In this document: positions 4,320 through 63,032 of the stretch, one piece after another
Layout of the letters: every line of letters begins with the position of its first letter
Position numbering within the stretch: the stretch's first letter is position 1
From: Patescibacteria group bacterium
Lineage (GTDB): Bacteria > Patescibacteriota > Minisyncoccia > Minisyncoccales > GWA2-38-27
NCBI GenBank assembly: GCA_020148045.1
Contig: JAHCRG010000003.1
Span: 34,087-98,086 of the forward strand
Direction of reading: 5' to 3'
Length of the DNA stretch: 64,000 bases
Notes under the pieces: model-generated
What the model saw: the letters and a program-made list of their open reading frames with translations, nothing else
Databases searched by the model: none
Told to the model about the DNA's origin: nothing
Made by a program: the position numbers and the translations under genes

Positions 4320-5321
4320 ATGAAAAAGGTTTTGGTTTTTTTGTTTTCTTTTGTAATCGGGTTGGGTCTTTTTTTCTTAGTTATTGAGCGGGTTGGGTGG
4401 GAAGAGATAAAAGAAATTCTTTTCACTTTTTCTGGCTGGAAGGGAATAGCTATTTTAGGAATAACATTGCTAATTTGGTTAGTTGGAATTTGGAAATATA
4501 AATTTATTTTTAAATCTCAGGGATATAATTTTTCAGCTTGGAGTTTAGGAGAAATTTTATTTGCTAGCTTCACTATTACTTATTTATTTCCAACCACTTA
4601 CTTTGGAGGAGAGGTCTTTAAATTTTACGCTATTAAGAAAAAATTTTCTCTACCCTGGAAGAAAAATCTGGCTGCAATTGCTATTGAAAAATTAGTTAGC
4701 TTAAGTATTCTTTTATTATTTTTAGTTGTTGGAGCAGTGTCTTTTCTTTTATTAAGTAACTCGCTCTTAAAAAATTTCGGGATAATAACTTTAGTTCTTA
4801 TCGGAGCTTTAGCTATCGGAGTGACTATTTTTTATTTCAAAAGTTTTAAAAAAGAAAGCATTTTAAAATGGTTTTTTAGATTTTTTGGAATAGAAAACAA
4901 AAAGAACCATTTAGTTGGAGATATTGAAAAAGAAATCTTTCTTTTTTTCGATTTTAGAAAAATTCTAATGTGGAAAGGTTTGGGAATTGCTTTTTTAAGA
5001 TATCTTTTGGTTCTAATTCGCTGTTGGTTCCTGCTTTTCTTTTTAAAAGGAGAAATAAATATTTTTATTTCCTTGGCAATATTTTCTTTCTTCTATTTAT
5101 CTTATCTCTTTCCTTTCCCAGCCCGACTAGGAAGTTCAGAGGCAGCTCAGGTTTTTGCTTTTGGTTGTTTAGGATTGGGAACAGCTACTGGGATTACTTT
5201 TAGTTTTATTTTAAGGGGGGCAGAAATTTTAATTGCCCTTTTAGGACTTATATTTTTAGTAAAACTGGGAATAAAATTTTTCCTCAAGAGCAAGTTAAAA
5301 AAGTTGCCCCATAACCTTTAA
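4320..5321 (+). CDS. polytopic membrane protein (flippase-like / UPF0104-type)
   Basis: Eight or more hydrophobic segments and a KK-rich N-terminus; no soluble domain. Confidence 0.35.
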   Translation: MKKVLVFLFSFVIGLGLFFLVIERVGWEEIKEILFTFSGWKGIAILGITLLIWLVGIWKYKFIFKSQGYNFSAWSLGEILFASFTITYLFPTTYFGGEVFKFYAIKKKFSLPWKKNLAAIAIEKLVSLSILLLFLVVGAVSFLLLSNSLLKNFGIITLVLIGALAIGVTIFYFKSFKKESILKWFFRFFGIENKKNHLVGDIEKEIFLFFDFRKILMWKGLGIAFLRYLLVLIRCWFLLFFLKGEINIFISLAIFSFFYLSYLFPFPARLGSSEAAQVFAFGCLGLGTATGITFSFILRGAEILIALLGLIFLVKLGIKFFLKSKLKKLPHNL

Positions 5322-6409: not shown

Positions 6410-7030
6410 ATGTTTAAAACTCTTAACAAAGTTGTAAAAGTAATGGTTTTTTCTGATTTGGTTTTGAATTCTGGCTGGGGCTTGGTTGGCCCAATTTTAG
6501 CTATTTATATTGTAGGAAGCATTCAGGGAGGAAACGTTAAAGTGGCTGGAATTGCTATGGGAGTTTACTGGTTGGGCAAATCAATTCTCCAAATACCATT
6601 TTCTCATTATTTAGACGAGAATCATGGAGAGAAAGACGATTATTATGCCTTATTTGGAGGAACTCTTCTGGCTAGCCTTACTCCGATTGGCTTTATTTTT
6701 GCCACATTGCCCTGGCATATATATGTTCTCCAAGGAGTCCATGCCGTAGGTATGGCTCTGGCTATTCCTTCTTGGTCAGCTATTTTCACTCGCCATATTG
6801 AGAAAAAAAGAGAGGCCTTTTGCTGGGGCTTAGACAGTTCTGCTATTGGGCTTGGAGCGGGAGTAGCTGCAATTTTAGGAGGAGCAATAGCTGAGATTTT
6901 CGGATTTATTCCTCTTTTTATTGGGGTGAGCGCTTTTGGAATAGTAGCTTCCTTTTTGTTTTTACTAATTAGAAAAGAAATTTTGCCGAAAGTGCCAGAA
7001 GAAAGAGTATTCCCAATGCCAAAACCATGA
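6410..7030 (+). CDS. 6-TM half-size MFS-like transporter, paralog B
   Basis: About 45% identical to the preceding ORF, with the same loop motif (HYLDENHGEKDD). Confidence 0.45.
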   Translation: MFKTLNKVVKVMVFSDLVLNSGWGLVGPILAIYIVGSIQGGNVKVAGIAMGVYWLGKSILQIPFSHYLDENHGEKDDYYALFGGTLLASLTPIGFIFATLPWHIYVLQGVHAVGMALAIPSWSAIFTRHIEKKREAFCWGLDSSAIGLGAGVAAILGGAIAEIFGFIPLFIGVSAFGIVASFLFLLIRKEILPKVPEERVFPMPKP

Positions 7031-8769
7031 GAAATCAGGAGTTAGCTAAAATTTTTTATGACATTGCTAATTATCTTGAGATGGAAGAGGTTGCTTTTAA
7101 ACCCTATGCTTATCAAAAAGTAGCTATTACTTTAGAATCATTGGAAGAAGACGTTGAAGAAATTTATAAAAAAGGAGGGTTAAAGGGGCTTGAAGAGATT
7201 CCTGGGGTAGGAAAAAACATTGCTCTGAAAATTGAAGAATATCTTAAAACCGGAAGAATTAAATTTTACGAGAAATTAAAAAAGAAAACTCCGATAAATT
7301 TAGAAGAAATGATTACTGTGGAAGGAATGGGGCCTAGAAAAGTAAAGATTCTTTATCAGAAATTGGGAATTAAGAATTTAAAGGATTTAGAAAAAGCAGC
7401 TAAGTCACATAAAATTGCTCCTTTGTTTGGCTTTGGAGAAAAAACAGAAAAGAATATTTTAGAGGGAATTGCTTTTTTGAAAAAGAGTAAAGGAAGATTT
7501 CTTTTGGGAGACATAATGCCGGTTGTCAAAGAGGTTTCAGAAGAGTTAAAAGGTTTAAAAGAAGTTAAAGAAATAAGTGTGGCAGGTTCAGTTAGAAGGA
7601 TGAAAGAGACAATTGGTGACGTTGATTTTTTAATAATTTCAAAAAATCCAAAGAAAGTGATGGATTTTTTTGTTTCTTTACCAGATGTAATTAAAATCTG
7701 GAGTAAAGGGCCGACAAAGTCTTCTGTCAGGATGAAAAATGGCTTTGATATGGATTTAAGAGTAGTTCCTGCTAAAAGTTATGGTTCAGCTCTTCAATAT
7801 TTTACTGGCTCAAAAGAACATAATATTGCTACTCGGCGGATTGCTATAGCTAAAGGTTTGAAGTTGAATGAATATGGAGTTTTCAAGGGCTCTAAAATGA
7901 TAGCTGGCAGGACTGAAAAAGAAGTTTATAAGACAATTGGTCTTCCCTTGATGCCTCCTGAAATGAGAGAAAACGAGGGAGAAATTGAAGCAGCCCTTCG
8001 GCAAGCTCGGGGCAGGCCCAACGGGTTACCAAAAATTATTGGCTACGATGACATTCGGGGAGATTTACATTGTCATTCAGATTGGGATGGTGGAACAAAT
8101 TCAATTAAAGAGATGGCCGAAGCTGCAATTGTTCAGGGATATGAATATTTGGGCATTGCAGACCATACTAAGTTTTTGAGGATAGAGCATGGATTAAATG
8201 AGAGGCAACTATCTCAACAAAGAAAAGAAATTGAAAAATTAAATTCAAAATTCAAAATTCAAAATTCAAAATTTAGAGTATTACAGGGCTGCGAAGCAAA
8301 CATTATGAATGACGGTTCTATTGATATTAAAGATGAAGCTCTTAAAAAATTAGATTATGTTATTGCTGGAGTTCATTCAAGTATGAAAATGGAAAAAGAA
8401 AAAATGACAGAAAGAATAATCAAAGCAATGAAAAATCCTAATGTTGATATTATCTCCCACCCAACAGGAAGAATAATTAAGCGCCGGGATGAGTATCAGG
8501 TTGATTTTGAAAAGATTTTAAGAGCGGCCAGGGAACTAGGAACAATCTTAGAAATAAACTCTTCTCCAGACAGATTAGATTTAAAAGATGTGTATATTAG
8601 GAGAGTAAAAGAAGTAGGGGTAAAAATGGTAATTAATACTGATTCTCATCATAGAGATCAGTTGAGATTTATTAGATTTGGAATTGCCCAAGCTCGGCGC
8701 GGCTGGGCAGAGAAAAAAGATATCATCAACACCCAGTCATTAAGTGAGCTTTTAAAATTTTTTAGATAA
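7027..8769 (+). CDS. polX: DNA polymerase X family with C-terminal PHP phosphoesterase domain
   Basis: N-terminal PolX HhH region (IPGVGKNIALKIEEYL) and nucleotidyltransferase (GSVRRMKETIGDVDFLI); C-terminal PHP (HCHSDWDGG…IADHT). Confidence 0.8.
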   Translation: MRNQELAKIFYDIANYLEMEEVAFKPYAYQKVAITLESLEEDVEEIYKKGGLKGLEEIPGVGKNIALKIEEYLKTGRIKFYEKLKKKTPINLEEMITVEGMGPRKVKILYQKLGIKNLKDLEKAAKSHKIAPLFGFGEKTEKNILEGIAFLKKSKGRFLLGDIMPVVKEVSEELKGLKEVKEISVAGSVRRMKETIGDVDFLIISKNPKKVMDFFVSLPDVIKIWSKGPTKSSVRMKNGFDMDLRVVPAKSYGSALQYFTGSKEHNIATRRIAIAKGLKLNEYGVFKGSKMIAGRTEKEVYKTIGLPLMPPEMRENEGEIEAALRQARGRPNGLPKIIGYDDIRGDLHCHSDWDGGTNSIKEMAEAAIVQGYEYLGIADHTKFLRIEHGLNERQLSQQRKEIEKLNSKFKIQNSKFRVLQGCEANIMNDGSIDIKDEALKKLDYVIAGVHSSMKMEKEKMTERIIKAMKNPNVDIISHPTGRIIKRRDEYQVDFEKILRAARELGTILEINSSPDRLDLKDVYIRRVKEVGVKMVINTDSHHRDQLRFIRFGIAQARRGWAEKKDIINTQSLSELLKFFR

Positions 8770-9229: not shown

Positions 9230-9476
9230 AGTGGTTAAAGAGATTCCAAAAGGTAAGGTTTTGACATACAAAATAGTAGCTAAGAAAGCAGGCTATCCAC
9301 GAGCGTGGAGAGCAGTAGGAAATGTTTTGAATAGAAATAAAAATCCTGAGATTCCTTGCCATCGGGTAATAAGAAGCAATGGAAATATTGGAGGATACAA
9401 CCGAGGAGTAAAACGAAAAAGAACTTTACTTTTAAAAGAAGGTGTGGTAGTAAAGAATATCAAAGTTGTTCGTTGA
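9198..9476 (+). CDS. ogt: methylated-DNA-protein-cysteine methyltransferase (MGMT/Ogt C-terminal domain, standalone)
   Basis: PCHRV active-site motif and an HTH (YKIVAKKAGYPRAWRAVGNVL). Confidence 0.7.
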   Translation: MNTLFQRKVYKVVKEIPKGKVLTYKIVAKKAGYPRAWRAVGNVLNRNKNPEIPCHRVIRSNGNIGGYNRGVKRKRTLLLKEGVVVKNIKVVR

Positions 9477-9511: not shown

Positions 9512-10981
9512 ATGAGTGCTGGACTGTTTGCATTAAGTATTAATCCGGAGAGTTTTCAGGGCGATTTTCAGGAGATAATTTTTTGGGGTACTTCTTATGC
9601 TCAGCATTTTAGCGGAAAGTTTTCTGGTTTTGCTTCGTTTGATGGTAAGAGGATCATCAGCGACAGTAAATCCGGACTATTTGCTCCTAATTTTGAAGAA
9701 AGGATAAGCGAATTTATCGGGCCAGAAGCTATTGGATATTGCGGCCCAGCTGAGGAACCTTTCTATGTAGGAAAATCAGATGTCGGTAGTTTTAGTGCTT
9801 GTTTCGGTGGCAACATTAGAAACTGCGATGAATTAATAAGGGATTTTTTACACGCCAAGCACAATTTCGAAAGAACAGATGACATCGTAGCAATGAGCAA
9901 ACTTATTATCCAAGGGGCAGATATCATCGATGGTATTAGGCGGATGAGCGAAAAAATTGACGGGGCTTATACTCTTTTGCTCCTTACTCCAGAAGGGATT
10001 TATGCTGTTCGTTCTCCCGACGGTCACTGGCCCCTAGTAATTGGCTGCAGCAAGGAACAAGACGCAGTAATAGTTGCTTCTGAGTGTGTAGGATTTGATA
10101 ATCTTGGTTTTAAACGAGTTAGAGATATTGAGCCGGGAGAGATTGTGTTGCTGAAAGACGGACATTGGTTCAAAAAAAGTGCGCTTCCAAAAACACAAGT
10201 TCAAGAATGTAGTTTCTTTGGAGCATATACTTCTTCTCGTGCTGCGATAGTTCATGGGATTCCAGCTACTTTAATCAGGAGGGGGTTAGGAGCCGCTTCA
10301 GCCAAACGAGACATTGCCGATGATTTTACTCCCCATGTAGTAATGGGCGTGCCTGCCTCTGGTCTTTCCTCTGCCGAGGGTTATAAGGAGACATTTGATG
10401 CTGAAATAAATCGACAGATAAGCTCAGGGAATATAACTCTGAAATGGGTTCCTTTTTATCGTCAGGATTTAATTAAGCATATCATGGTGAGGAGCTATCT
10501 AGCCCCGACTCAGGAAGAGAGAGAAAGAAGAGCTTATTACAAAATTGTGATTACTAGTGAGACCATTAAGCACATTCTTCAGTGGTTAGAAGAAGAAGGT
10601 TTGACAGTAATATTGGGGGATATAAAGTCAAAAAGGAGGATAATCTTAGTTGTCTGCGATGATTCTATTGTTAGGGGAAGTCAGATGAAGTCGAATCTGG
10701 CTCCAAAAACAAGAATAATATATGAGATGGAAGTAGATGGGGTTGATATAAAAGTTGAAATTCATCTAAGAATCTCTTTCCCTCCACTCCGTTCTTATTG
10801 TCCTCACGGAAAGACAACCAAAAGGGGGGAAACTTTAGTTGAGCAACATCCGGATGAAGAAGATAGAATTAGAGCATTAGGAGTAGATGGTTTGAAGTAT
10901 AACAGTGTTGATGATTTGGTTGGGATAATTGGCAAGCCCCGAGAGCAACTATGTATAGATTGCTGCTTCCGTAGAGAATAA
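9512..10981 (+). CDS. PurF-like amidophosphoribosyltransferase homolog with Cys1 replaced (MSAG…)
   Basis: Gn_AT_II-like core (DGAYTLLLLTPEGIYAVRSPDGHWPLVIG…VIVASECVGFDNLGF) and PRTase domain (VVMGVPASGLSSAEGY…ILVVCDDSIVRGSQ). The ATG at 9512 has a good RBS (AAGGAGAAAGAA ATG). The ORF-track start at 9356 overlaps ogt and is unlikely. Confidence 0.6.
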   Translation: MSAGLFALSINPESFQGDFQEIIFWGTSYAQHFSGKFSGFASFDGKRIISDSKSGLFAPNFEERISEFIGPEAIGYCGPAEEPFYVGKSDVGSFSACFGGNIRNCDELIRDFLHAKHNFERTDDIVAMSKLIIQGADIIDGIRRMSEKIDGAYTLLLLTPEGIYAVRSPDGHWPLVIGCSKEQDAVIVASECVGFDNLGFKRVRDIEPGEIVLLKDGHWFKKSALPKTQVQECSFFGAYTSSRAAIVHGIPATLIRRGLGAASAKRDIADDFTPHVVMGVPASGLSSAEGYKETFDAEINRQISSGNITLKWVPFYRQDLIKHIMVRSYLAPTQEERERRAYYKIVITSETIKHILQWLEEEGLTVILGDIKSKRRIILVVCDDSIVRGSQMKSNLAPKTRIIYEMEVDGVDIKVEIHLRISFPPLRSYCPHGKTTKRGETLVEQHPDEEDRIRALGVDGLKYNSVDDLVGIIGKPREQLCIDCCFRRE

Positions 10982-10985
10982 GAAG

Positions 10986-11030
10986 AATTTAAAAAGCCAT
11001 CTTTCAAAGGTGGCTTTCTTTTTATCATAG
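10986..11030. terminator. bidirectional intrinsic terminator between the convergent PurF-like gene and rplT
   Basis: AAAAAGCCATCTTTCAAAGGTGGCTTTCTTTTT hairpin with A-run and T-run flanks. Confidence 0.5.
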
Positions 11031-11031
11031 G

Positions 11032-11379
11032 TTATTTTTTTACCTCTTCTACGATCTTTTCAAAGATGTTGGGATTGTTTTTTGCGAGGTCGGCTAAGAT
11101 TTTTCTATCAAGTTCAATCTTTTTTTCTTTTAGTTCGTGGATAAAACGACTGTAGGATAAACCCTGCTTTCTACAGGCAGAATTTATTTGAATTTGCCAG
11201 AGTTTTCTAAATTCCCTTTTTTTGACCCTTCTATCTCGATAAGCATATTTCCAGGCATGCATTAATGCCTCTTTTGCTGCTTTGTACTTTGATTTTCTTC
11301 CCCAACGAAAACCTTTAGTATGTTTTAATACTTTTTTTCTTCTTTTGTGTGCAGCTTTTCCTCTTTTTACACGAACCAT
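11032..11379 (-). CDS. rplT: 50S ribosomal protein L20
   Basis: MVRVKRGKAAHKRRKKVLKHTKGFRWGRKSKYKAAKEALMHAW… is a canonical L20. Confidence 0.9.
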   Translation of the reverse strand: MVRVKRGKAAHKRRKKVLKHTKGFRWGRKSKYKAAKEALMHAWKYAYRDRRVKKREFRKLWQIQINSACRKQGLSYSRFIHELKEKKIELDRKILADLAKNNPNIFEKIVEEVKK

Positions 11380-11380
11380 A

Positions 11381-11563
11381 TTACTTAATTAACTTCTTAA
11401 TCTTCCTGGCAAATGGCTTGGAAACTTTAACCCATTTCCGGCCTTTTCTTTTCCTCTTACCCGTTTTTTTCGCCCGATAATGGTCCTGTCCAGTCGCTCT
11501 TCTTAGAACCTTACCGGTTTTAGTTATTTTAAAACGTTTTTTGATTGATTTTCTCGTTTTCAT
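11381..11563 (-). CDS. rpmI: 50S ribosomal protein L35
   Basis: 60-aa basic protein MKTRKSIKKRFKITKTGKVLRR; infC-rpmI-rplT operon order. Confidence 0.85.
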   Translation of the reverse strand: MKTRKSIKKRFKITKTGKVLRRATGQDHYRAKKTGKRKRKGRKWVKVSKPFARKIKKLIK

Positions 11564-11575
11564 AGTTAAATTTTT

Positions 11576-12085
11576 CTATTTTTTGGAAATAATCATTGTT
11601 AATCCTCTTGGTTGTCTTTTTAATTCTCTTTCAATTTTTATTGGAATTGACTTTTCTAATGCCTCAAGAAATTTTTTTATTTTTTCTTTAGCAAAATCTT
11701 GATGTGCTTTTTCTCTTCCTCTCAATTTCATCTCTATTCTAACCTTATATCCTGACTTTAAAAATTTTTCTGTTTGTCTGACTCTTGTTTCTAAATCGTG
11801 TTCAGAAATTCCAAAAGTTAATCTTATTCCTTTAAGTAAGCTTATCCGGTGATCTTTAGCTGATTTTTCTTTCTTTTTCAGTTGATAAAGATATTTTCCA
11901 TAGTCCATTAGTTTACAAACAGGCGGCTCAACTTTTTCTGTAACCTGGATTAAATCGAAACCGCGCTCCCTTGCTATTTGGAGCGCTTTTGTTAATACCA
12001 AAACTCCCAGTTGTTTTCCAGCTTCATCAATCACCCTTACTTCTCTGGCCCTTATTCGATTGTTGACTAATGGTTTTCTTTGCAC
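11576..12085 (-). CDS. infC: translation initiation factor IF-3 (GTG start)
   Basis: N- and C-domain motifs (IRAREVRVIDEAGKQLGVL…); upstream of rpmI-rplT. Confidence 0.85.
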   Translation of the reverse strand: MQRKPLVNNRIRAREVRVIDEAGKQLGVLVLTKALQIARERGFDLIQVTEKVEPPVCKLMDYGKYLYQLKKKEKSAKDHRISLLKGIRLTFGISEHDLETRVRQTEKFLKSGYKVRIEMKLRGREKAHQDFAKEKIKKFLEALEKSIPIKIERELKRQPRGLTMIISKK

Positions 12086-12086
12086 T

Positions 12087-12425
12087 GTGGAGATGGCGAG
12101 GGTGAACTCGCGTCCAAAAGTTTTGCCAAAATAGTTCTACAGATTTAGTCTGTTTTAATTTTCAGATACCAAGCAAGAAACAGACAAAATCTTAGTATCT
12201 TATCCTCGTTTGTTTCAATAATTCCCTTGAGGAAGAAAATTATCTATCTCGCGATTATAACGCCAAAGATTGCTTAGCGAGAATCAGTAATCCCGACGGC
12301 GTTAAGCAAATGCTAACGCAGGTTTCTTAAATAAGTTAGCACTTATTTTTTCTGGAAGTTTTACCAGATTCCAAGCTGGAACTGCTTTATCCTGACAAAA
12401 ACTTCTGTCAAAACTTTTCATCCCC
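12087..12425 (-). ncRNA. ssrA: tmRNA (SsrA); predicted tag peptide ANLFKKPALAFA
   Basis: Minus-strand transcript begins GGGGAUGAAAAG… and ends …GGACGCGAGUUCACCCUCGCCAUCUCCAC. The 5' GGGGAUG pairs with 3' CAUCUCC to form the acceptor stem, and a T-arm GCGAG-UUCACCC-CUCGC is present. An internal ORF GCU AAC UUA UUU AAG AAA CCU GCG UUA GCA UUU GCU UAA is present. The gene lies immediately downstream of smpB. Confidence 0.75.
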
Positions 12426-12867
12426 GTGATTTTAATTCTCTTTTTAATTCTCTTTCTGCTTCTCGTTTTTTAATTAGCTCTCTTTTGTCAGCTTTTTTTC
12501 TTCCTTTAGCTATTCCAAATTCAAGCTTAATTTTACCTCTCTTAGTATACACTCTTAAGGGTATTAAAGTCAAGCCCTTTTGTTTTGTTTTCCCGATTAA
12601 ATGTTTAATTTCTAACTTATTCAAAAGAAGTTTTCTTGACTTTTCTGGTTCATAATCTTTAGGAGCGTTTTTTGGTTGATAAGGAGGGATATTAGCTCCG
12701 ATTAAATACGGTTCCTCTCCCTTTAGAACCACATAAGAACCTTTTAAGCTCATCCTCCCTGATTTTATTGACTTTACTTCCTGTCCAATCAAAACCATGC
12801 CTGCTTCAAATTTCTCCAGGATTTCATAGTCAAACCTCGCTTTTCTATTTTCCGCAAGAACCTTCAT
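12418..12867 (-). CDS. smpB: SsrA-binding protein SmpB
   Basis: MKVLAENRKARFDYEILEKFEAGMVLIGQEVKSIKSGRMSLKGSYV… is a canonical SmpB. Confidence 0.9.
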   Translation of the reverse strand: MKVLAENRKARFDYEILEKFEAGMVLIGQEVKSIKSGRMSLKGSYVVLKGEEPYLIGANIPPYQPKNAPKDYEPEKSRKLLLNKLEIKHLIGKTKQKGLTLIPLRVYTKRGKIKLEFGIAKGRKKADKRELIKKREAERELKRELKSRG

Positions 12868-12908
12868 ATCACTTTTATTTTATCAGAAAATAAGCTAAAC
12901 TGGAAACA

Positions 12909-14459
12909 ATGATTAGGAATGATATCAGGAAATTAATAGAGAAAGCAGTAAAGGAGCTTGGTTTTAAGGTTCCAGAGGTTTTGGTTGAGGAGCCGAGGGA
13001 GAAGGCATACGGTAATTATGCCACTAATGTTGCAATGACGATTGGGAAAGAAGATCCAATAAAGATAGCTGAAATGATAAAATCAAAAATTAAAAGCAAT
13101 ATTATCGAGAAGATTGATGTTGTTAAACCGGGTTTTATTAATTTTTTTATTTCCAAAGAGTATTTGCAAGAACAAGTAGGGGAGATTTTAAAAGAAAAAG
13201 AGAAATTTGGTGATTTGAAACTCGGGAAGGGTAAAAAAGTTCAAGTAGAATTTATTTCCGCGAATCCAACAGGTCCCTTAACAGTAGGTAATGCTCGAGG
13301 CGGTCCTTTTGGTGATGCCTTGGGGAATATCCTGAAAAAAGCTGGTTTTAACGTTGAAAAAGCTTTTTATATCAATAATTACGGGATGCAAATTTTAGCT
13401 TTGGGAAATTCTGTTTTGAAAAATAAAGAAGCTAAATACAAAGGTAAATATATTGATTATTTAAGCAAAAAAATTAAAGGGAAAGATCCTTATAAAGCAG
13501 GGGAGAAGGCAGCTAAAATTATTGTTGATGAAATGATTAAGAAGACAGCTGATAGAATGGGAATAAAGTATGACGAGTGGTTTTCAGAAACAAAACTTCA
13601 CAAATCTGGAGAAGTTGATAAGGTTTCAGAGTTTTTAAAGAAAAAAGGTTTAGCTTATAAAAAAGAAGGAGCTTTGTGGTTTAAATCTACAAAATTTGGT
13701 GATAATAGAGACAGGGTTATTATCAAAAAAGATAGCTGGAAAACTTATTTGGCTGGAGATATTGCCTATCATAAATATAAATTTGAGAAGAAGAAGTTTG
13801 ATAAAGTAATCGATGTTTGGGGGGCTGACCATGCTGGCGATGTTTTTGGTTTGCAGGCTGGAATGACTGCTTTTGGCCACAAAGGAAAGCTTGATATAAT
13901 TCTTTTACAATTTGTTACTCTCTTGGAAAAAAAGAAAAAAATCAAAATGTCCAAAAGGCGGGGTGTTTATGTTGCCATGGATGAGCTACTTGATAAAGTT
14001 GGAGCTGATGTTACTAAGTTCTTTTTCTTACAAAAGTCAGCTGACACTCACTTAAATTTTGACGTCTCTATAGCTAAAGAGCAATCAGAGAAGAATCCGG
14101 TTTATTATGTCCAATACGCTCATGCCAGGATTTGTAGCATTTTACGTAAAGCAAAAGGTTTCAAGTTTCAAGTTTCAAGTTTCAGGTTATTAGATCATCC
14201 AAGCGAACTATCTTTAATTAAGCGGTTGATTAGATTCCCAGAAATTATTGGAGATACTGCTAAAGATTATCAGGTGCAGAGAGTTCCTCAATATGCAACT
14301 GATTTAGCTACTGAGTTTCATAAATTTTATCGCGATTGTAAGGTTATTTCAGACGATAAAGAGTTAAGCCAGGCAAGATTATCTTTAATTTTAGCAACCC
14401 AAACCGTTCTTAAAAATACTTTAGATTTAATGGGAATTAGCGCCCCAAAAAAAATGTAA
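12909..14459 (+). CDS. argS: arginyl-tRNA synthetase
   Basis: ISANPTGPLTVGNARGG (HIGH-region variant of ArgS), KMSKRRG, and the C-terminal anticodon-binding domain. Confidence 0.85.
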   Translation: MIRNDIRKLIEKAVKELGFKVPEVLVEEPREKAYGNYATNVAMTIGKEDPIKIAEMIKSKIKSNIIEKIDVVKPGFINFFISKEYLQEQVGEILKEKEKFGDLKLGKGKKVQVEFISANPTGPLTVGNARGGPFGDALGNILKKAGFNVEKAFYINNYGMQILALGNSVLKNKEAKYKGKYIDYLSKKIKGKDPYKAGEKAAKIIVDEMIKKTADRMGIKYDEWFSETKLHKSGEVDKVSEFLKKKGLAYKKEGALWFKSTKFGDNRDRVIIKKDSWKTYLAGDIAYHKYKFEKKKFDKVIDVWGADHAGDVFGLQAGMTAFGHKGKLDIILLQFVTLLEKKKKIKMSKRRGVYVAMDELLDKVGADVTKFFFLQKSADTHLNFDVSIAKEQSEKNPVYYVQYAHARICSILRKAKGFKFQVSSFRLLDHPSELSLIKRLIRFPEIIGDTAKDYQVQRVPQYATDLATEFHKFYRDCKVISDDKELSQARLSLILATQTVLKNTLDLMGISAPKKM

Positions 14460-15046: not shown

Positions 15047-17866
15047 ATGAATTTTGATTTTCCGAAAATTGAAGAGAAAATTCTAAAGTTTTGGCAGGAG
15101 AAGAAGATCTTTGAAAAACTTAGAAAGAAAAATCAGGGCAAAGAACGCTGGTCATTTTTAGATGGACCAATAACAGCTAACAATCCAATGGGCGTGCATC
15201 ATGCTTGGGGAAGGACTTACAAAGATTTATTCCAGAGATATAAAGCAATGCAGGGTTTTGACCAGAGGTTTCAAAATGGCTTTGATTGCCAGGGGCTTTG
15301 GGTTGAGGTTGAGGTTGAAAAAGAAATGGGCTTTAAAACAAAAAAGGACATTGAGAAATTTGGTATTGAGAAATTTGTTGAGGCCTGCAAGAAAAGAGTT
15401 TTGAAATATTCTAAGATTCAGACAGAGCAGTCAATTCGCTTGGGCCAGTGGATGGATTGGAAGAATTCCTATTACACAATGTCTGATGAAAATAATTATG
15501 CTATTTGGAGTTTTCTTAAAACTTGCTGGAAAAAAGGATTATTGTACAAAGGCAGGGATGTTGTTCCTTGGTGTCCTCGTTGTGGCACAGCTATTTCCCA
15601 GCATGAGATTTTAACTGAAGAGTATAAAGAACTTACTCATAAATCAATTTTTGTAAAATTGCCAGTTGAGGGACGGAAGAATACCTTTTTCCTTGTTTGG
15701 ACAACCACGCCCTGGACTTTACCAGCTAATATTGCCTTAGCTGTTCAGCCAAGATTAACTTATGCTGAAGTCCGGGATAAGAAAGGAGGTATTTTTATTG
15801 TTCTTAAAGAAAAAGCTGATTTAATTCCAGATGGAAGGATAATTAAAGAGTTTCCTGGAAAAGAATTGGATAATTTAAAGTATCAAGGCATGTTTGACGA
15901 GTTGGAGGCAGTTAAGAAGAGCATGAAAAAAGAAAAGCACAGAGTTATTTTATGGAAGGATGTTTCTGAAGAAGAAGGGACTGGGATTGTTCATATTGCT
16001 CCTGGTTGTGGACAAGAGGATTTCCAATTAAGTAAAGAACTTAAATTTCCAGTTGTTGATCCAACAGATGAGGAAAGTAGATACAAAGATGGTTTTGGAT
16101 TTTTAGCTGGGAAATTAGTGAGCGAGGTGAACGAGCAGATTTTTGAGAATTTAACCAAAAAAGGTTTAGTTTTCAAAATTGAAGATTATATTCACCGTTA
16201 TCCAACTTGCTGGCGTTGTAAAGAAGAATTGATTTTCCGCTTAGTTGATGAGTGGTATATTTCAATGGATAGATTGAGAAAATCCTTGATGAAAGTAGCA
16301 AAGAAAATAAAATGGATTCCTTCTTTTGGTTTAGATAGAGAATTGGATTGGTTAAAAAATATGCAGGATTGGTTAATTTCCAAGAAACGTTATTGGGGCT
16401 TGGCTTTACCAATTTATGAATGTAAATGTGGTAATTTTGAAGTGATTGGTTCAAAAGAGGAATTGAAAGAAAAGGCAGTTTCTGGTTGGGATAAATTTGA
16501 AGGTCGTTCTCCTCATCGTCCTTGGGTAGACGAAGTGAAAACTAAATGTTCAAAATGCAAGAAATTAGTTTCTCGGATTCCTGATGTAGGAAATCCCTGG
16601 CTTGATGCTGGCATAGTTCCTTTTTCTACAATGGAAAAAGAATGGTTTCCAGCTGAATTTATTTGCGAATCTTTCCCTGGCCAATTTAAAAATTGGTTTT
16701 ATGCTTTGATTGTGATGAGCACTTTTTTAGAAAATACTGAGCCGGTAAAGACAATTTTTGGTTTTGCTTCAGTTAAGGACGAAAAAGGAGAAGAGATGCA
16801 TAAGTCAAAAGGAAATGTTATTTGGTTTGATGAGGCAGTTGATAAAATTGGAGCTGATCCAATGCGTTGGATGTACAGCAGGCAGAATCCTGTTTATAAC
16901 TTGAAGTTTGGCTATGGACCAGCAGAAGAGATAAAGAGGAAGTTATTAACTTTATATAATGTCTATGCTTTTTTTGAAACGTATGTCTCAAAAAAAGAAC
17001 TACCAACTACCAACTACCAACTACAATCTAATAATATTTTAGGTAGATGGATTATTTCCAGATTAAATAATTTGATTGGAAGGGTTACTAGAAGTTTGGA
17101 TAGATATAATACCTCTGCTGCCACGGTGGCAATTGAGAAATTTTTTATTGATGATTTATCCCTTTGGTATGTTAGAAGGTCTAGAAAAAGATTTCACCAG
17201 GGAGCTAAAGGAAGAAAAGAAGCAATTGAAACCCTTTATTATGTGCTTCTAGATTTAACCAAACTCATAGCTCCTATTATGCCCTTTTTTGCTGAAGAGA
17301 TGTATTCTAATTTGCGTTTAGAAAATATGCCAGAGTCAATTCATTTGTTTGATTGGCCAAAAGTATATAAAGAGAAAATTGACAAGGATTTAGAAGAAAA
17401 AATGAAACAAGTTCGGGAGAGTGTTACCCAAGCTTTAGCTCAAAGAGCAGAATTAGGAATTAAAGTGCGCCAGCCGTTAGCTGGGTTGAAGATTAAGAAT
17501 AAGTTAGATGAAGAATTATTAGAATTGATTAAGGATGAAGTTAATGTTAAGAAAATTACTTTTGGCAAGGAAGTTAAATTAGATACTAAGATTAGCAAAG
17601 AGCTGAGAGAGGAAGGGATAGTTAGGGAAGTTATTCGGCATATTCAAGAAATGAGAAAGAAAGCTGGATTAAAGACAAAAGATAGAATTTTAGTTCAATG
17701 CCATGGTTCAGATAAATTGAATAAGATTTTGGTTGCGAAGAAGGATTTTATTATCAAAGAGACAGTGGCTGAAGATTTTAAAATAGAGAAGGAAGAAAAA
17801 TTTGAGATTAAAAAAGAAATAAAAGCCGATAAAGAAAAATTATGGCTTGGAATTAAGAAAGTTTAA
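15047..17866 (+). CDS. ileS: isoleucyl-tRNA synthetase
   Basis: PITANNPMGVHHAWGRT, KMSKSKGN, CP1 editing region; 939 aa. Confidence 0.9.
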   Translation: MNFDFPKIEEKILKFWQEKKIFEKLRKKNQGKERWSFLDGPITANNPMGVHHAWGRTYKDLFQRYKAMQGFDQRFQNGFDCQGLWVEVEVEKEMGFKTKKDIEKFGIEKFVEACKKRVLKYSKIQTEQSIRLGQWMDWKNSYYTMSDENNYAIWSFLKTCWKKGLLYKGRDVVPWCPRCGTAISQHEILTEEYKELTHKSIFVKLPVEGRKNTFFLVWTTTPWTLPANIALAVQPRLTYAEVRDKKGGIFIVLKEKADLIPDGRIIKEFPGKELDNLKYQGMFDELEAVKKSMKKEKHRVILWKDVSEEEGTGIVHIAPGCGQEDFQLSKELKFPVVDPTDEESRYKDGFGFLAGKLVSEVNEQIFENLTKKGLVFKIEDYIHRYPTCWRCKEELIFRLVDEWYISMDRLRKSLMKVAKKIKWIPSFGLDRELDWLKNMQDWLISKKRYWGLALPIYECKCGNFEVIGSKEELKEKAVSGWDKFEGRSPHRPWVDEVKTKCSKCKKLVSRIPDVGNPWLDAGIVPFSTMEKEWFPAEFICESFPGQFKNWFYALIVMSTFLENTEPVKTIFGFASVKDEKGEEMHKSKGNVIWFDEAVDKIGADPMRWMYSRQNPVYNLKFGYGPAEEIKRKLLTLYNVYAFFETYVSKKELPTTNYQLQSNNILGRWIISRLNNLIGRVTRSLDRYNTSAATVAIEKFFIDDLSLWYVRRSRKRFHQGAKGRKEAIETLYYVLLDLTKLIAPIMPFFAEEMYSNLRLENMPESIHLFDWPKVYKEKIDKDLEEKMKQVRESVTQALAQRAELGIKVRQPLAGLKIKNKLDEELLELIKDEVNVKKITFGKEVKLDTKISKELREEGIVREVIRHIQEMRKKAGLKTKDRILVQCHGSDKLNKILVAKKDFIIKETVAEDFKIEKEEKFEIKKEIKADKEKLWLGIKKV

Positions 17867-19314: not shown

Positions 19315-20040
19315 ATGGCGGTCCACTATAGAACTCAAGGTTTTGTATTAAAAAAAACTGATTTGCGGGAAGCAGACCAAGTTTTTTCTATTTATACTCA
19401 AGATTTTGGCAAGTTGGAGATTTTAGGAAAAGCAATCAGAAAGATAAAATCAAAGCTAAGGTTAGGAGCTGAACTTTTTTATTTATCAGAAACTGAATTT
19501 ATTCAAGGAAAAACCTATAAAACCTTAACTGATGCAATAGTAATTGATAAGTTTAAAAATATAAGGAGTGATTTGGAAAGATTAAAGATTGCCTATCAAA
19601 TTGCTGAAACCGCAGATAATTTAATCAGTGGTCAAGAAAAAGACGAAAAGATTTGGAATTTATTAAATGAAGTATTTGATAAGTTGGAGAACTATGAATT
19701 AAGAATTAAGAATTATGGATTGATTTATTTGTATTTTATTTGGAACTTGCTTTCAATTTTGGGGTATCAGATTGACCTTTATAATTGCGCTGTTTGTCAG
19801 AAAAAATTAGTTCCTCAAAAACTTTACTTTAACCCGGAAGAAGGAGGGACAATTGATTTGGAATGTTTTAAAAAGATAGAAAAAGGAGAGGAGGTTTCTC
19901 CAGAGTTAGTGAAGATATTACGGCTTTTACTAAAAAAGGATTGGAACATTTTATCAAGATTAAAAATTCAAGATTTACATAAAAAAGAATTAGAAAATAT
20001 TTCTGAAAATTATATTTCTTTTTACAAACAAGGAGCTTAG
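19315..20040 (+). CDS. recO: DNA repair protein RecO
   Basis: N-terminal OB fold (YRTQGFVLKKTDLREADQVFSIYTQDFGKLEI) and C-terminal zinc motif CAVCQKK…C. Confidence 0.75.
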   Translation: MAVHYRTQGFVLKKTDLREADQVFSIYTQDFGKLEILGKAIRKIKSKLRLGAELFYLSETEFIQGKTYKTLTDAIVIDKFKNIRSDLERLKIAYQIAETADNLISGQEKDEKIWNLLNEVFDKLENYELRIKNYGLIYLYFIWNLLSILGYQIDLYNCAVCQKKLVPQKLYFNPEEGGTIDLECFKKIEKGEEVSPELVKILRLLLKKDWNILSRLKIQDLHKKELENISENYISFYKQGA

Positions 20041-22627: not shown

Positions 22628-22859
22628 ATTGACAAAAACATTATAAAAAGCTATCTTTTATAATATAGTATGGTTCTTTTCGCAAAAAAGGGTGATTGTG
22701 GCGCCGGTAAGCTACGCTTATTCATAAAGGTGTTGAGATTACAACTACGGTAATTCGCAAAAAAACCTTAACGCCCTTTCACTCTTTTTATAAACCATGC
22801 CCTGCATTTTCGCTTTCTGGCTCCCCCCACCGGAAGGTTGTAGAATGCAGGGTTTTTTT
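22628..22859 (+). promoter_or_regulatory. long glyQS 5' leader: promoter (TTGACA…) plus ~200-nt structured region ending in a strong intrinsic terminator
   Basis: TTGACA at 22628. Nested hairpin CCCTGCAT…(CUUUCUGG-CUCCCCCCA-CCGGAAGG)…ATGCAGGG followed by T7 at 22853-22859. The glyQS ATG is 39 nt downstream. Confidence 0.45.
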
Positions 22860-29524: not shown

Positions 29525-30760
29525 ATGTTTACTTCATGCAAATGGCCTCAATTAATAACTTGCAAACAAAGCAGTAAATTAACAATGCCGTTACTTGTAT
29601 TGCTTGCCATCTTTCTATTCGGCCGATCGGCCGAGGCACAATACGGCGGCGGCACCGGAGACCCCAGTGACCCTTACCTGATTTACACGGCCGAGCAGGT
29701 GAATGCAATTGGGGCCGAGCCCAACGATTGGGACAGGCACTTTAAGCTCATGGCAGATATTGATTTGAGCGGCGTTACGGGAACAGATTTTAACATCATC
29801 GGATACTATCGAACTTGGCAAGACCACAAGCCATTTACCGGCGTTTTTGACGGCAGCGGCAAGATAATCTCAAACTTCAGCTACACTTCTACGGATACAG
29901 ACTACATAGGACTTTTCGGGTACGTTATGGGAGGAAATGCAGTAATTAAGGATTTGGGATTGATTGACCCAAATATTGATGCGGGAACAGGAAATTGCGT
30001 TGGCTCGCTGGTCGCAATCAATATTGGCACAATCACCAACTGCTATGCCCAGGGCGGCAGCGTTTCTGGCAATGACGAAGTCGGCGGCCTGGTGGGATGG
30101 AATAAGTGGAGAACAATCTCCGACTGCTATTCAACCAGCTACGTTTCGGGAAATTGGCGTGTCGGCGGCCTGGCGGGATTCAATGATTGTGCCCCAATCA
30201 CCAACTGCTATTCAACCGGCAGCGTTTCAGGAACAACAGATGTCGGCGGCCTGGTGGGAAATAATGAGGGCACAATCACCAACTGCTATTCAACCAGCTA
30301 TGTTTTGGGAAATCGGCGTGTCGGTGGCCTTGTGGGAGAAAATGGGTACGAAGGCTACTTGGGGAGCACATATGGTACGATATCCAACTGCTATTCGAGC
30401 GGCAGCGTTTTGGGAGATGGTTATGTCGGAGGCCTGGCGGGATATAATCGTTCTGGCACAATCATCAACTGCTATTCAACCAGCTACGTTTCGGGAGATA
30501 GTTATGTCGGTGGCCTGGTGGGAGAAAATTTTTGGGGTGGTGAGGTTATGGCTTCTTTCTGGGATATTGAAACCAGCGGACAGACAGCGAGTGCTGGGAC
30601 GGGTAAAACAACGGCCGAGATGCAGACCGAGAGCACGTTTTCTGATGCTGGCTGGGATTTTCTAGTCGAGAGCGTAAATGGCACCGAGGATATCTGGTGG
30701 ATTCTCGAAGGTCAGGATTATCCCCGGCTGAGTTGGGAGCTCATCGGAGACGGCTCGTAG
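29525..30760 (+). CDS. secreted GLUG-motif repeat protein (GC-rich)
   Basis: Signal-peptide-like MPLLVLLAIFLFGRSAEA. About six tandem ~27-aa repeats TI(T/S)NCYS…V(S/L)G…VGGL(V/A)G, the GLUG motif. GC content is far above flanking DNA. Confidence 0.65.
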   Translation: MFTSCKWPQLITCKQSSKLTMPLLVLLAIFLFGRSAEAQYGGGTGDPSDPYLIYTAEQVNAIGAEPNDWDRHFKLMADIDLSGVTGTDFNIIGYYRTWQDHKPFTGVFDGSGKIISNFSYTSTDTDYIGLFGYVMGGNAVIKDLGLIDPNIDAGTGNCVGSLVAINIGTITNCYAQGGSVSGNDEVGGLVGWNKWRTISDCYSTSYVSGNWRVGGLAGFNDCAPITNCYSTGSVSGTTDVGGLVGNNEGTITNCYSTSYVLGNRRVGGLVGENGYEGYLGSTYGTISNCYSSGSVLGDGYVGGLAGYNRSGTIINCYSTSYVSGDSYVGGLVGENFWGGEVMASFWDIETSGQTASAGTGKTTAEMQTESTFSDAGWDFLVESVNGTEDIWWILEGQDYPRLSWELIGDGS

Positions 30761-36968: not shown

Positions 36969-37102
36969 TAGTATATCTCCCGGCAAAATCCCTGACAAAT
37001 CTGTCAACCTATGACACAGTGTAAGTGTTATGGTGAAGTAGTTATAACTTCGCAAAATGTTAATTAAAAACCAATAGTAGATAAATATCAAGGAGATGAA
37101 AA

Positions 37103-37336
37103 ATGAAAGTAGGAACGAAAGTAGAAATGAAAGTAAAAATGATTTTGATGCCAGGAATTTTCTTTCTGATGCTCGCGGTAGCATTAATTTATATAACTTT
37201 TTCCGGGGAAGCATCTGATCCGAGTAAAACAGCGATTGCTGGGATTGTGGCAGCTGTGCCTGGTATAACTTTCACAAGTATTGGACTTTTATGGATTAAG
37301 GAAGCCGTTAAGAAAGGTATTAAGAAAGCCACATGA
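37103..37336 (+). CDS. small membrane protein (77 aa)
   Basis: RBS CAAGGAGATGAAAAATG; two TM helices. The 5' end contains a 12-nt x3 tandem repeat. Terminator at 37371-37398. Confidence 0.4.
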   Translation: MKVGTKVEMKVKMILMPGIFFLMLAVALIYITFSGEASDPSKTAIAGIVAAVPGITFTSIGLLWIKEAVKKGIKKAT

Positions 37337-42775: not shown

Positions 42776-43642
42776 TTAACGCCGTAAGGCATAAATATTT
42801 CTTCCTAAGTTTCTCACTTTTCCTTTTATTTCTAAAACACTAAGAGTACTGGCTACAATGGTTGCCTTTAATTTTGTTTTTTCAATGATTTTATCAATAT
42901 ACAAGGATTCTTCTTTTAGAGTATTTAAAATCAGATTTTCTTCAAGAGTTTGGTTGTCATACCCGTCCACCTCGCCTCGCGAAGCGAGGTGGGCGGGTAA
43001 ATTTAATTCTTGCAAGATGTCATCAGCTTTGTCAAGGAGCTTAGCTCCTTTTTTTATCAGGATGTGGGGGCCTCGAGAGTTTAAAGCATAAATTGGGCCT
43101 GGCACGGCAAATACCTTTCTTTTTTGAGAAAAAGCAAAATTAGCAGTAATTAAAGCCCCGCTTTTTTCTTTAGCTTCAATTACTAATGTTCCCAAAGAAA
43201 GACCTGAGATTATTCGATTTCTGTCAGGGAAAGTGAAGCGAGTACCTCTTGTTCCCGGAGGATATTCTGAAATTAAAAGGCCTCCTGAATCAACAATTTT
43301 TCTGGCTAATTTAATATTTTCTTTTGGATAGATGCTTTTTTCATCAAGACCGGTGCCAAGAACAGCAATTGTTCTTCTTCCTTGCTCAACTACTGCTGTG
43401 TGGGCAAAAGTATCAATTCCCGGAGCTAAACCACTAACAATAGTAAGTCCAGATTCAGCTAAGTTACCTGCAATTTCCAGGGCTACTTGCTTTCCATAAG
43501 AAGAGCATCTCCTTGTGCCGACCACGGCGAAACATAATTCATCTGGTTTAATTTCGCCTTTAAAATAGAGAATTTTCGGTGCTTTTTTGATTCTTTTAAG
43601 CTGTTCTGGATAATCCTTGTCTTCTATTGTTATTTTTTCCAT
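42776..43642 (-). CDS. dprA: DNA processing protein DprA (Smf)
   Basis: Rossmann-like core FAVVGTRRCSSYGKQVALEIAGNLAESGLTIVSGLAPGIDTFAH. Confidence 0.8.
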   Translation of the reverse strand: MEKITIEDKDYPEQLKRIKKAPKILYFKGEIKPDELCFAVVGTRRCSSYGKQVALEIAGNLAESGLTIVSGLAPGIDTFAHTAVVEQGRRTIAVLGTGLDEKSIYPKENIKLARKIVDSGGLLISEYPPGTRGTRFTFPDRNRIISGLSLGTLVIEAKEKSGALITANFAFSQKRKVFAVPGPIYALNSRGPHILIKKGAKLLDKADDILQELNLPAHLASRGEVDGYDNQTLEENLILNTLKEESLYIDKIIEKTKLKATIVASTLSVLEIKGKVRNLGRNIYALRR

Positions 43643-62828: not shown

Positions 62829-63032
62829 ATGGCAGTGAGACCCAGAAGAATTCTGCGAGCCAAGGGAAGATTGAAACCCAATCATGTGTATGCGAGCCAG
62901 TCAGAAAATGAAACCCAAAGGGACGTTGCGAGCCAAAACTCCATTGAAACCCAAAGTAATTTTGCGAGCCACGACAAGAATGAAACCCAACATATTATTG
63001 CGAAAATTTCGCAGAAGGGAGAATTGAAATGA
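62829..63032 (+). CDS. possible repeat-encoded small protein, translationally coupled (ATGA overlap) to the downstream ORF
   Basis: Basic N-terminus plus 12-aa repeats. The stop TGA overlaps the next ATG. Confidence 0.25.
   Translation: MAVRPRRILRAKGRLKPNHVYASQSENETQRDVASQNSIETQSNFASHDKNETQHIIAKISQKGELK

Follow-up and report, generated by a model that had tools for sequence, protein, structure and literature searches.

In-frame heptanucleotide arrays in variable loops of housekeeping proteins from one lineage of Patescibacteria

Introduction

Heptanucleotides are the most abundant class of 5-11-nt repeats in most prokaryotic genomes (Mrazek 2007, as summarised in PMC4679880). A published proposal, related in the same summary, is that 7 nt corresponds to the stretch of DNA that the polymerase touches. 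Heptamer arrays dispersed in the genomes of Xanthomonas and Nostoc are built from one genome-wide unit, and about four units are preferred (PMC4692102). Here, we describe heptanucleotide arrays within six genes, encoding PolX, ArgS, IleS, RecO, LeuS and ComEC, of a bacterium of the Patescibacteria group. The arrays were found in a stretch of 64,000 nucleotides, referred to as the window, which spans positions 34,087 to 98,086 of contig JAHCRG010000003.1 (assembly GCA_020148045.1). They fit the definition of long simple sequence repeats (SSRs), being head-to-tail 5-11-nt units that run longer than composition predicts. A literature search, which did not cover all journals, returned no account of heptanucleotide repeats, or of tandem repeats in general, from Patescibacteria or the Candidate Phyla Radiation.

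Our analysis indicates that these arrays occupy the same loops in orthologous proteins, that their units differ between relatives and that the loops are not lengthened by them. We propose that they were probably homogenised by misaligned DNA synthesis and that they persist where the protein tolerates them.

Sequences and methods

Repeats were detected with Tandem Repeats Finder (TRF) and with a separate exact scan of the window, and the six host genes were named by NCBIfam. The chance model consisted of 200 dinucleotide-preserving shuffles of the window. For comparison, we fetched loci around ArgS homologs, 78 of them metagenomic and 80 from genomes; labels of the type L001 refer to these loci. 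The controls among the genome loci were, among the matches listed, mostly from distant phyla. Protein searches placed the window in Patescibacteria (Parcubacteria/Paceibacteria-like), in a metagenome-assembled genome, with the closest homologs at 72-73% identity for ArgS and 88-89% for LeuS. The window is A/T-rich (33-40% GC along the sequence, in a genome of ~35% GC) and nearly all of its genes lie on the plus strand. The order PolX-ArgS-IleS-RecO is kept in many of the fetched loci.

Results

Six genes of the window carry heptanucleotide arrays

The arrays and the insert that splits one of them are as follows.

8241-8273, plus strand: PolX array, AAATTCA x4.7 with 100% matches, in ORF 7027-8769; encodes NSKFKIQNSKF in a loop of the PHP domain
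14158-14188, plus strand: ArgS array, GTTTCAA x4.4, in ORF 12909-14459; encodes FKFQVSSFR in the linker before the anticodon-binding domain
16998-17024, plus strand: IleS array, AACTACC x3.9 with 100% matches, in ORF 15047-17866; encodes LPTTNYQL
19688-19715 by TRF (feature to 19717), plus strand: RecO array, AGAATTA x4.0 (equal to a GAATTAA unit), in ORF 19315-20040; encodes NYELRIKNY
33785-33801 (TRF 33786-33801), plus strand: left half of the LeuS array, AAATTCA, in ORF 33092-35551
33802-33839, plus strand: GC-rich insert splitting the LeuS array, 38 nt, in frame, assigned to family A below, CCAACCCTCCGGGGAGTCTCTCACTTCGTTCAATCCAG
33840-33856 (TRF 33840-33854), plus strand: right half of the LeuS array, AAATTCA
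55504-55534, plus strand: ComEC array, GAATTAA x4.4, in ORF 55426-56766; encodes ELRIKNYELRK

All six host ORFs read through the array in frame. This agrees with the initial annotation of the window, which had reported tandem 7-bp repeats in coding regions; they are real, in frame and far above chance, but each holds about 4-5 units rather than three. Its argument that triple copies keep the frame was therefore wrong in detail. The identity of a 22-mer in recO and comEC was confirmed as an exact match: GAATTAAGAATTAAGAATTATG stands at 19696-19717 and at 55504-55525, with 0 matches in 100 shuffles, and an exact scan of the window found no copies beyond these two arrays. In the RecO array, TAT stands where a perfect repeat would give TAA. 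In LeuS, AAATTCA repeats are present as described, but the two short tracts are not two sites; they are the halves of a single 4.7-unit AAATTCA array, split by the 38-nt insert. The insert replaces 2 array bases, giving a net gain of 36 nt and 12 residues. Judged by alignment, this GC-rich element is the sole true insertion among the sites named earlier. An AlphaFold model of ArgS, which is of low confidence (mean pLDDT 63.8, pTM 0.37), places the array between two helices.

Two other repeats had been grouped with the arrays, one of them a hexamer in the IleS gene.

15301-15318, plus strand: IleS hexamer, (GGTTGA)x3, encodes WVEVEVEK

The hexamer lies outside the phenomenon and is not a product of slippage, since WVEVEVEK is kept, with synonymous differences, in L113, L011, L086 and L105. 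The 12-mers at ~37100-37140 belong to a repeat (37099-37142) that falls between large genes and is unrelated to the arrays.

Arrays exceed chance and are concentrated in one lineage

Perfect period-7 tracts of at least 3 copies were observed 3 times in the window, with 0.0 expected from the 200 shuffles. With the threshold at 2.5 copies or more, 5 tracts were observed and 0.25 expected. The comparison with shuffled sequence that had been put forward as a check, run here on the window, shows an excess. For periods 5 and 8-11, the real window sequence held no tract of at least 3 copies.

Across the fetched loci, TRF reported 56 period-7 arrays in 1.09 Mb of Patescibacteria vs 10 in 1.12 Mb of other phyla. 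Period 14 was likewise in excess (38 vs 13), and periods 6, 8 and 9 occurred at similar rates in the two sets. In the other phyla, the arrays (~9 per Mb) are located in four loci and are mostly non-coding. The window's clade, taken as the loci with 62% ArgS identity or more, reached 85 arrays per Mb, and the window alone 78 per Mb. The sister clade (394 kb, GC 0.354, equal to that of the window's clade) had 5 arrays per Mb, both of them in L113 and L127, and a more distant group of Patescibacteria had 0 period-7 arrays in the loci scanned. Array abundance is specific to one Patescibacteria lineage. Codon usage or A/T-richness is ruled out as the cause, because density differs more than 10-fold at equal base composition. 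Dozens of independent assemblies (JGI, ENA and NCBI) carry arrays at the orthologous sites.

Nearly all arrays lie on the sense strand inside long ORFs. Non-coding arrays are also present, in L002 and L045. The latter, a Parcubacteria contig, carries 10 heptamer arrays in 21.6 kb (956-1007, 7990-8060, 15422-15502 and others), including three AAACTCC arrays and intergenic palindromes that consist of an array, a short GC hairpin and a reverse-complement array.

The same loops carry different units without a change in length

The ArgS array lies in a loop between ARICSILRK and LLxHPSEL, where period 7 leads in most Patescibacteria orthologs although the units differ. The window has GTTTCAA, L127 has ATTTCCA x5.6, and the units of other loci are TCAAAAA (L002), ATTCCAA (L007), AAATTCA (L011), GAATTAA (L083), AAATTCG (L084) and GCTACAA (L097). 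ArgS loops of Firmicutes, Chloroflexi and others are of similar length and show no period 7. The window and L130 share the unit CAAGTTT, in phase, and beyond ~80% flank identity the units are effectively randomised.

The PolX loop of the window (LNSKFKIQNSKFRVLQG) and that of L127 (LNEKFEKHNIKFRILQG) form a gap-free alignment. Arrays at the same PolX site are built from TCAAGAT x5 in L137, GCAAATT in L083, CTTAAAA in L089 and AATGAAA in L082. The PolX units contain conserved anchor codons at both loop ends, for example AAATTY for K-F, and because these codons are conserved locally, the arrays appear to be built from local sequence. The length of the RecO loop is constant as well, with same-site units AACTTAC x4.6 (L113), AATTGTC x5 (L086) and AAATTGG (L082). 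The IleS loop (residues 651-660) has the length seen in L113 and L086 and differs by one residue from T. thermophilus IleS 1ile; L113 carries a degenerate CCAGTTA array at the site of the window's array. Most LeuS homologs have an uninterrupted 4.7-unit array of the FKIQNSKFKIP type, of the same length as the hairpin of T. thermophilus.

These comparisons overturn the earlier suggestion that the arrays are insertions relative to orthologs, since the loops are of equal length in ArgS, PolX, RecO and ComEC and nearly equal in IleS. The same holds for LeuS, where the array is as long as the Thermus thermophilus loop and only the 12-residue GC-rich insert is extra. As far as the alignments go, the arrays overwrite permissive loops without lengthening them. 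The view of the loops as tolerant sites held up, in that the arrays lie in permissive loops, where sequence varies. The similarity of the encoded peptides had been taken as a sign of an inserted element; it mostly follows from three-frame reading of A/T-rich, stop-free units.

ComEC and a second IleS site behave differently. ELRIKN[YN]ELR is present in essentially all of ~78 ComEC homologs down to 60% identity, with no insertion, and its variable seventh residue (Y, N, S, D or H) coincides exactly with the codon that would be TAA if the GAATTAA repeat were perfect. In L163, the closest ComEC relative, the peptide type is kept and the periodicity of the DNA has decayed. Orthologs that carry the same residues without repetition of the DNA had been named beforehand as evidence against an insertion process, and at the protein level ComEC supplies them. 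A segment ELRIKNxELR near the C terminus of IleS occurs in many Patescibacteria down to 37% identity (L011, L082, L086, L004 and L009), and it is the peptide that the RecO and ComEC arrays of the window encode as well. The window's IleS has a shortened, decayed GLKIKNKLDEE at that site (17480-17520, residues ~812-825). At both sites, protein-level selection now holds the sequence.

Array length changes in steps of three units

The length of the arrays peaks at 31-34 nt, or 4.4-4.9 units. Among LeuS homologs, 44 of 78 have the array-length form, 9 of 78 have a form shorter by 7 residues (FP--IP) and the rest have extra inserts inside the array. A neighbour-joining tree places the array-length form, which predominates, at the base. 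It shows the short form in no fewer than three separate clades, which are nested among array-bearing lineages and include the nearest relatives of the window. In one cluster sharing 90% identity or more, lengths of 800, 807 and 832 residues coexist, and the array is exactly where the 7-residue difference falls. The N-terminal loop of ArgS has either 7 or 14 residues. Both these ArgS loops and the LeuS homologs with 90% identity or more show that change does come in units of 21 nt (7 residues), in keeping with the initial annotation.

Only three-unit steps were seen in copy number between close relatives, as would be expected in essential ORFs, and the near-identical contig pairs L088/L089 and L097/L098 have identical arrays. 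Indels of 7, 14 or 21 residues among close relatives (~5 of ~17) are in apparent excess, which is suggestive in a sample too small to test.

Units are partly shaped by the avoidance of stop codons

The array units consist of 50% A, 25% T, 18% C and 7% G, and the typical order is an A-run, then a T-run, then C. Most units have this shape because TAA, TAG and TGA must be absent from each of the three frames in which a heptamer repeat is read. Arrays of GAATTAA always carry a variant at the would-be TAA codon, namely TAT in RecO, ComEC and the ArgS of L083. Because of this stop avoidance, the 'imperfection' of the 22-mer shared by RecO and ComEC is at least partly forced. Stop avoidance together with background composition predicts A27 C20 G22 T31 and a chance of unit sharing of 0.0011. 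We rejected it as a full account of the units, given that predicted and observed composition differ. A preference for hydrophilic A-rich codons in loops may be part of the bias.

Small GC-rich and hairpin inserts occur in the same loops

The 38-nt LeuS insert belongs to a family (A) of GC-rich elements of 36-39 nt (GCAACCCTNCGGGGAGTC...TCCAG), the consensus of which, at 38-39 nt, is GCAACCCT[AC]CGGGGAGTCTCTCACT..GTTC[AG]AT[CT]CAG. The copies are listed here.

Window 33802-33839: LeuS
L113 4641-4679: PolX
L160 2360-2398: LeuS
L161 10256-10291: ComEC
L162 4562-4597: ComEC
L002 ~7083-7117, minus strand

The copies in L113 PolX and L160 LeuS are ~87% identical to the window's insert and are read in a different frame. 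Those in the ComEC genes of L161 and L162 represent a variant with a different 3' half, so that two alternative 3' halves exist overall; the peptide ATLRGVRLEASR points to this variant in three further ComEC homologs. Family A showed no significant fold (z-scores 0.5 to 1.0), and an Rfam search of the LeuS insert with its flanks (33760-33880) gave sub-threshold chance matches only. We considered and rejected derivation of the inserts from transfer-messenger RNA (tmRNA) or tRNA, as they have no similarity to the window's tmRNA or tRNA and the T-loop-like GTTCGATYC of family A has no complementary stem.

Family B is a 54-nt double hairpin in the ArgS gene of L085 (4038-4091; z -4.3 and -5.6), located exactly at a heptamer unit boundary, and L086 (~4965-5020) has a version with compensatory stems. 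L084 (2141) lacks the element; its identity to L085 is 99.4% up to the insert and drops to 82% beyond it, so that recombination has broken the match at the array or else the assembly is chimeric there. Family C is a hairpin of ~27 nt with a variable GC stem (CCCGCC/GGCGGG, TCCTCC/GGAAGGA or CCCCCC/GGGGG) and the conserved loop TTCGCTAAAGCT[TA]C.

L113 4005: PolX
L113 14591: IleS
L100 11297-11350: ArgS, one copy nested in another
L159 ~9830-9856, minus strand: TatD, in reverse orientation
L102 ~9270-9334: tandem copies
L118 8989 and L152 390: upstream of tRNA-like sequence, apparently intergenic
L139 172

Family C is also found in LeuS homologs, where it encodes the peptide PAFAKASAG. The inserts are not strictly targeted to arrays, because the TatD copy has no array nearby; the sites that arrays and inserts share are best read as permissive loops.

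When the window was compared with its nearest relatives over ~9,000 aligned residues, the indels that span 2 or more residues proved to be mostly GC-rich palindromic insertions in coding DNA, and several measure 7, 14 or 21 residues. They include sites at ~62256, ~39336 and 55633 of the window and the aligned positions of L163 and L159; one example is GAAACTCGGTTTCCTAATGGAAACCGAGTTTC in the ComEC gene of L163. These indels hint at fold-back template switching. Three heuristics designed to pick out GC-rich inserts between heptamers gave no useful information, the first being too noisy, the second too strict and the third missing known cases.

Other features of the window

A tmRNA gene (12085-12425, minus strand) lies immediately upstream of ArgS; it scores 133.9 bits in Rfam and was not reported by ARAGORN. 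A 12-nt repeat (12430-12475) adjoins its 5' end. The ORF at 29525-30760 contains GLUG motifs and 81/159-nt tandem repeats (30030-30346). It is located where the GC content of the window is highest (0.40), and its product may be an acquired surface protein. Strong GC-rich hairpins are predicted at 2055-2134 (-50 kcal/mol), 22798-22853 (-29 kcal/mol) and 42950-43004 (-34 kcal/mol), and these may represent terminators or small RNAs that lack annotation. A degenerate 36-nt tandem repeat (x4.3) occupies 62836-62990, downstream of a gene for an HtrA-like protease. In L160, a close relative, precomputed Pfam matches indicate that the topoisomerase I gene (11014-14174, minus strand) contains an intein, which has a LAGLIDADG endonuclease domain; the topoisomerase ORF of the window (40724-42757) is of ordinary length.

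Discussion

A probable misalignment process filtered by the protein

Based on these observations, we think it probable, with some reservation, that the arrays are slippage-prone sequences kept homogeneous by misaligned replication or conversion and that they survive only in permissive loops. Misaligned DNA synthesis, either as replication slippage or as out-of-register conversion within an array, would both create arrays and homogenise them, and this process would be unusually active in this Patescibacteria lineage. A new array would survive under three conditions. The protein would have to tolerate arbitrary sequence at that position, as in surface loops, hairpins and linkers. The net change in length would have to be a multiple of three units (21 nt, 7 residues). 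Finally, the unit would have to be free of stops in all three frames or carry a variant that removes the stop. Selection would eliminate arrays that are out of frame, contain stops or, in constrained loops, alter length. Because the genome is almost entirely coding, loops would be the sole refuge for arrays, and this three-condition filter would account for their placement on the sense strand, the shape of their units and their length of ~31-35 nt. A typical array of that length would be one 21-nt quantum plus the seed. Once established, an array would persist while its unit drifts and is homogenised again, so that orthologous loops would keep their length and carry different perfect units.

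The underlying process is probably ordinary misalignment. Slippage or conversion is what we infer as the mechanism, and for the 7-nt unit the contact length of the polymerase may be the reason. In E. coli, work of the Lovett laboratory is said to have found that single-strand DNA exonucleases suppress both misalignment at tandem repeats and template switching at quasi-palindromes. By analogy, if a reduced genome had lost such exonucleases, that loss could account for its arrays and its palindromic inserts alike. The initial annotation had offered slippage-prone insertions or a mobile or templated insertion process as alternatives. Slippage is the one that our reading of the arrays favours, and the small GC-rich inserts look mobile or templated; the heptamer arrays themselves do not belong to such inserts.

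Several observations weigh against this proposal. Slippage by a single unit would frameshift an essential gene, and we know of no established mechanism by which a seed of one or two units would gain three units in one step, loss alone being easy. Array length is sharply peaked and does not decay with length. The repertoire of units is far narrower, richer in A and poorer in G than stop avoidance and composition predict. Identical units occur in 8.9% of within-genome pairs vs 1.4% between genomes (permutation p=0.001; 79 within-genome pairs), as in PolX and LeuS of the window (AAATTCA), RecO and ComEC of the window, ArgS and IleS of L007 and two ArgS sites of L092. The correlation of unit similarity with relatedness is weak (Spearman -0.18, p=0.04). 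Lastly, ELRIKNxELR in ComEC and at the C-terminal site of IleS is conserved far beyond what is expected of a neutral array.

Alternative explanations

Sharing of units within genomes, the narrow repertoire and the peaked length are a better fit to copying between arrays or to a templated process. One version of this idea is an active sequence-writing process, confined to one lineage, that rewrites loop stretches of ~33 nt and homogenises arrays across loci. We regard it as somewhat unlikely. It may take one of two forms, namely a defect or specialisation of replication or repair that reiterates 7-nt units and makes fold-back insertions, or copying between dispersed arrays. Taken with the small in-frame GC-rich hairpin inserts of the same loops, such a process, if real, would mean that the 'junk DNA' of ultra-compact genomes lives inside essential proteins. 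The bacterial preference for 7 nt would then have an enzymatic cause, which could be traced by setting array-rich clades against their array-free sisters.

A dedicated process, templated or mobile, would write heptamer cassettes of ~33 nt into permissive sites, and arrays at different loci would be copies of one another. Ectopic conversion from a genome-specific master copy, a reverse transcriptase or polymerase that reiterates a 7-nt template, and a small element with heptamer arms are candidates that we judge, taken together, to be unlikely. The identical units at non-orthologous sites of a genome (p=0.001) speak for such a process, as do the narrow unit repertoire with its 31-34 nt length peak, the strong lineage specificity at equal GC and the overwriting of loops at unchanged length. 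This overwriting was also the one reason to consider a diversity-generating retroelement. So do the palindromes of L045, in which an array, a hairpin and an inverted array follow one another, and the small dispersed GC-rich inserts in the same loops. However, the units contain conserved local anchor codons and stay in phase with them, and close relatives share units while more distant ones differ by a few substitutions, which is what descent with drift would give. The arrays showed neither target-site duplications nor terminal repeats, and neither flanking homology nor an associated gene, although no genome-wide gene search was made. The variant in the GAATTAA arrays, which could pass for a copied imperfection, is at least partly forced by stop avoidance. 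Sharing of units could also arise from shared K-F anchors or from ectopic conversion between arrays that were already similar, and the within-genome sample of 79 pairs is small.

The periodicity of the DNA could instead be a by-product of selection on the protein for an amphipathic, beta-hairpin-like repeat of 7 residues (KFKI-QNS-KFKI or ELRI-KNY-ELRI) written in A/T-rich codons. ComEC and the C-terminal site of IleS suggest as much, with their motifs conserved to 60% and 37% identity, and the LeuS array takes the place of a T. thermophilus hairpin of equal length. In addition, four-residue polar/hydrophobic strands like KFKI (AAATTCAAAATT) hold 1.7 heptamer units by construction. As an account of the arrays in general, however, we find this quite unlikely. 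Units are identical at synonymous positions across 27-39 nt, and the loops of close relatives encode different peptides, such as FKFQVSSF, ISNFQFP and SKVKS in ArgS or YELRIKNY and NLQLTTCN in RecO. Sister Patescibacteria of the same GC have similarly long loops without arrays, the arrays of L002 and L045 include non-coding ones, and in L163 ComEC the peptide type outlived the periodicity of the DNA.

That the arrays are a product of chance, composition or assembly, as A/T-rich metagenome assembly and a possibly chimeric join at the L084/L085 array might suggest, is effectively refuted by the zero expectation in shuffles, the orthologous sites affected in dozens of independent JGI, ENA and NCBI assemblies, the in-frame state of all arrays and the equal-GC control clades with no or nearly no arrays (0-5 per Mb).

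Among functional roles, a phase-variable contingency locus was rejected, since the hosts are housekeeping genes (synthetases, PolX, RecO and ComEC) and the alleles in ~100 loci are all in frame. The one broken ArgS gene (L011, ~10330-10345) is split by a frameshift in an A-run (GGCAAAAAATAAATG), not at the nearby heptamer array, and is probably an assembly error. Frameshifting or phase variation, ribosomal slippery sites, uptake sequences, intron-like removal and telomerase-like synthesis were dropped, as no feature supporting them was seen. They were dropped because alleles are all in frame and changes in insert length are mostly multiples of three; the exception is the IleS insert of L113, where the length was estimated by eye at approximately +2 residues.

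Significance

Three-unit steps and stop-free units within essential genes expose a mutational process unusually cleanly. With a more than 10-fold contrast in density between sister clades of equal composition, it becomes feasible to look, by comparison, for the polymerase, exonuclease or repair factor behind the arrays. The arrays also show how proteins of extremely reduced genomes gain fast-changing loop sequence at constant loop length. For annotators, repeats and odd inserts in the housekeeping genes of Patescibacteria are real.

Comparison with known systems

The small inserts recall the palindromic elements of Rickettsia, which Ogata and colleagues, in work of 2000, reportedly described as selfish DNA inserted in frame in protein-coding genes. 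Like the Rickettsia elements, the inserts are short and dispersed, lie in frame and in either orientation within permissive parts of unrelated genes of a reduced genome, and in some cases form hairpins. They differ in being 27-54 nt long, where the Rickettsia elements have ~100-150 nt, in having few copies per genome sample and, for family A, in having no significant fold.

For the arrays, the contingency loci of Haemophilus, Neisseria and others offer slippage-prone, non-triplet repeats in ORFs as a parallel (PMC3315296, PMC2651432). Those repeats switch surface or host-interaction genes by frameshift, lie near the 5' end and change by single units. In contrast, the arrays described here are in the middle of essential housekeeping genes, every allele is in frame and the steps are of three units. 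The TAACTGA repeats of Beggiatoaceae, cyanobacteria and Bacteroidetes likewise have 2-6 copies, a patchy distribution among lineages and a placement ruled by translation (PMC4679880). However, TAACTGA has stops in all three frames, and these repeats are therefore intergenic, often just upstream of start codons, with a proposed regulatory role. The Patescibacteria units are the opposite, being open in all three frames and inside genes. The GGGNATC repeats of Xanthomonas and Nostoc and the tandem heptanucleotides of Calothrix share with our arrays the use of one unit at many loci, about four copies and restriction to certain lineages (PMC4692102). GGGNATC-type repeats are G-rich, capable of forming quadruplexes, over-represented between genes and under-represented on the coding strand, whereas the Patescibacteria arrays are rich in A, T and C, vary in unit by site and lineage and lie almost entirely on the sense strand of ORFs.

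The closest match is to the heptanucleotide long SSRs of prokaryotic genomes (Mrazek, Guo and Shah 2007, as summarised in PMC4679880). Both consist of head-to-tail 7-nt arrays beyond chance, with period 7 prevailing over periods 5, 6 and 8-11, and both are attributed to slippage. According to that article, the published long SSRs occur mainly in large genomes and mostly outside genes, and units that are multiples of three are tolerated in coding DNA. The Patescibacteria arrays differ in belonging to a tiny genome, in residing at conserved loop positions of housekeeping genes, in being read in three frames and in holding ~4-5 units. The arrays are a coding-region form of the known bacterial excess of 7-base repeats.

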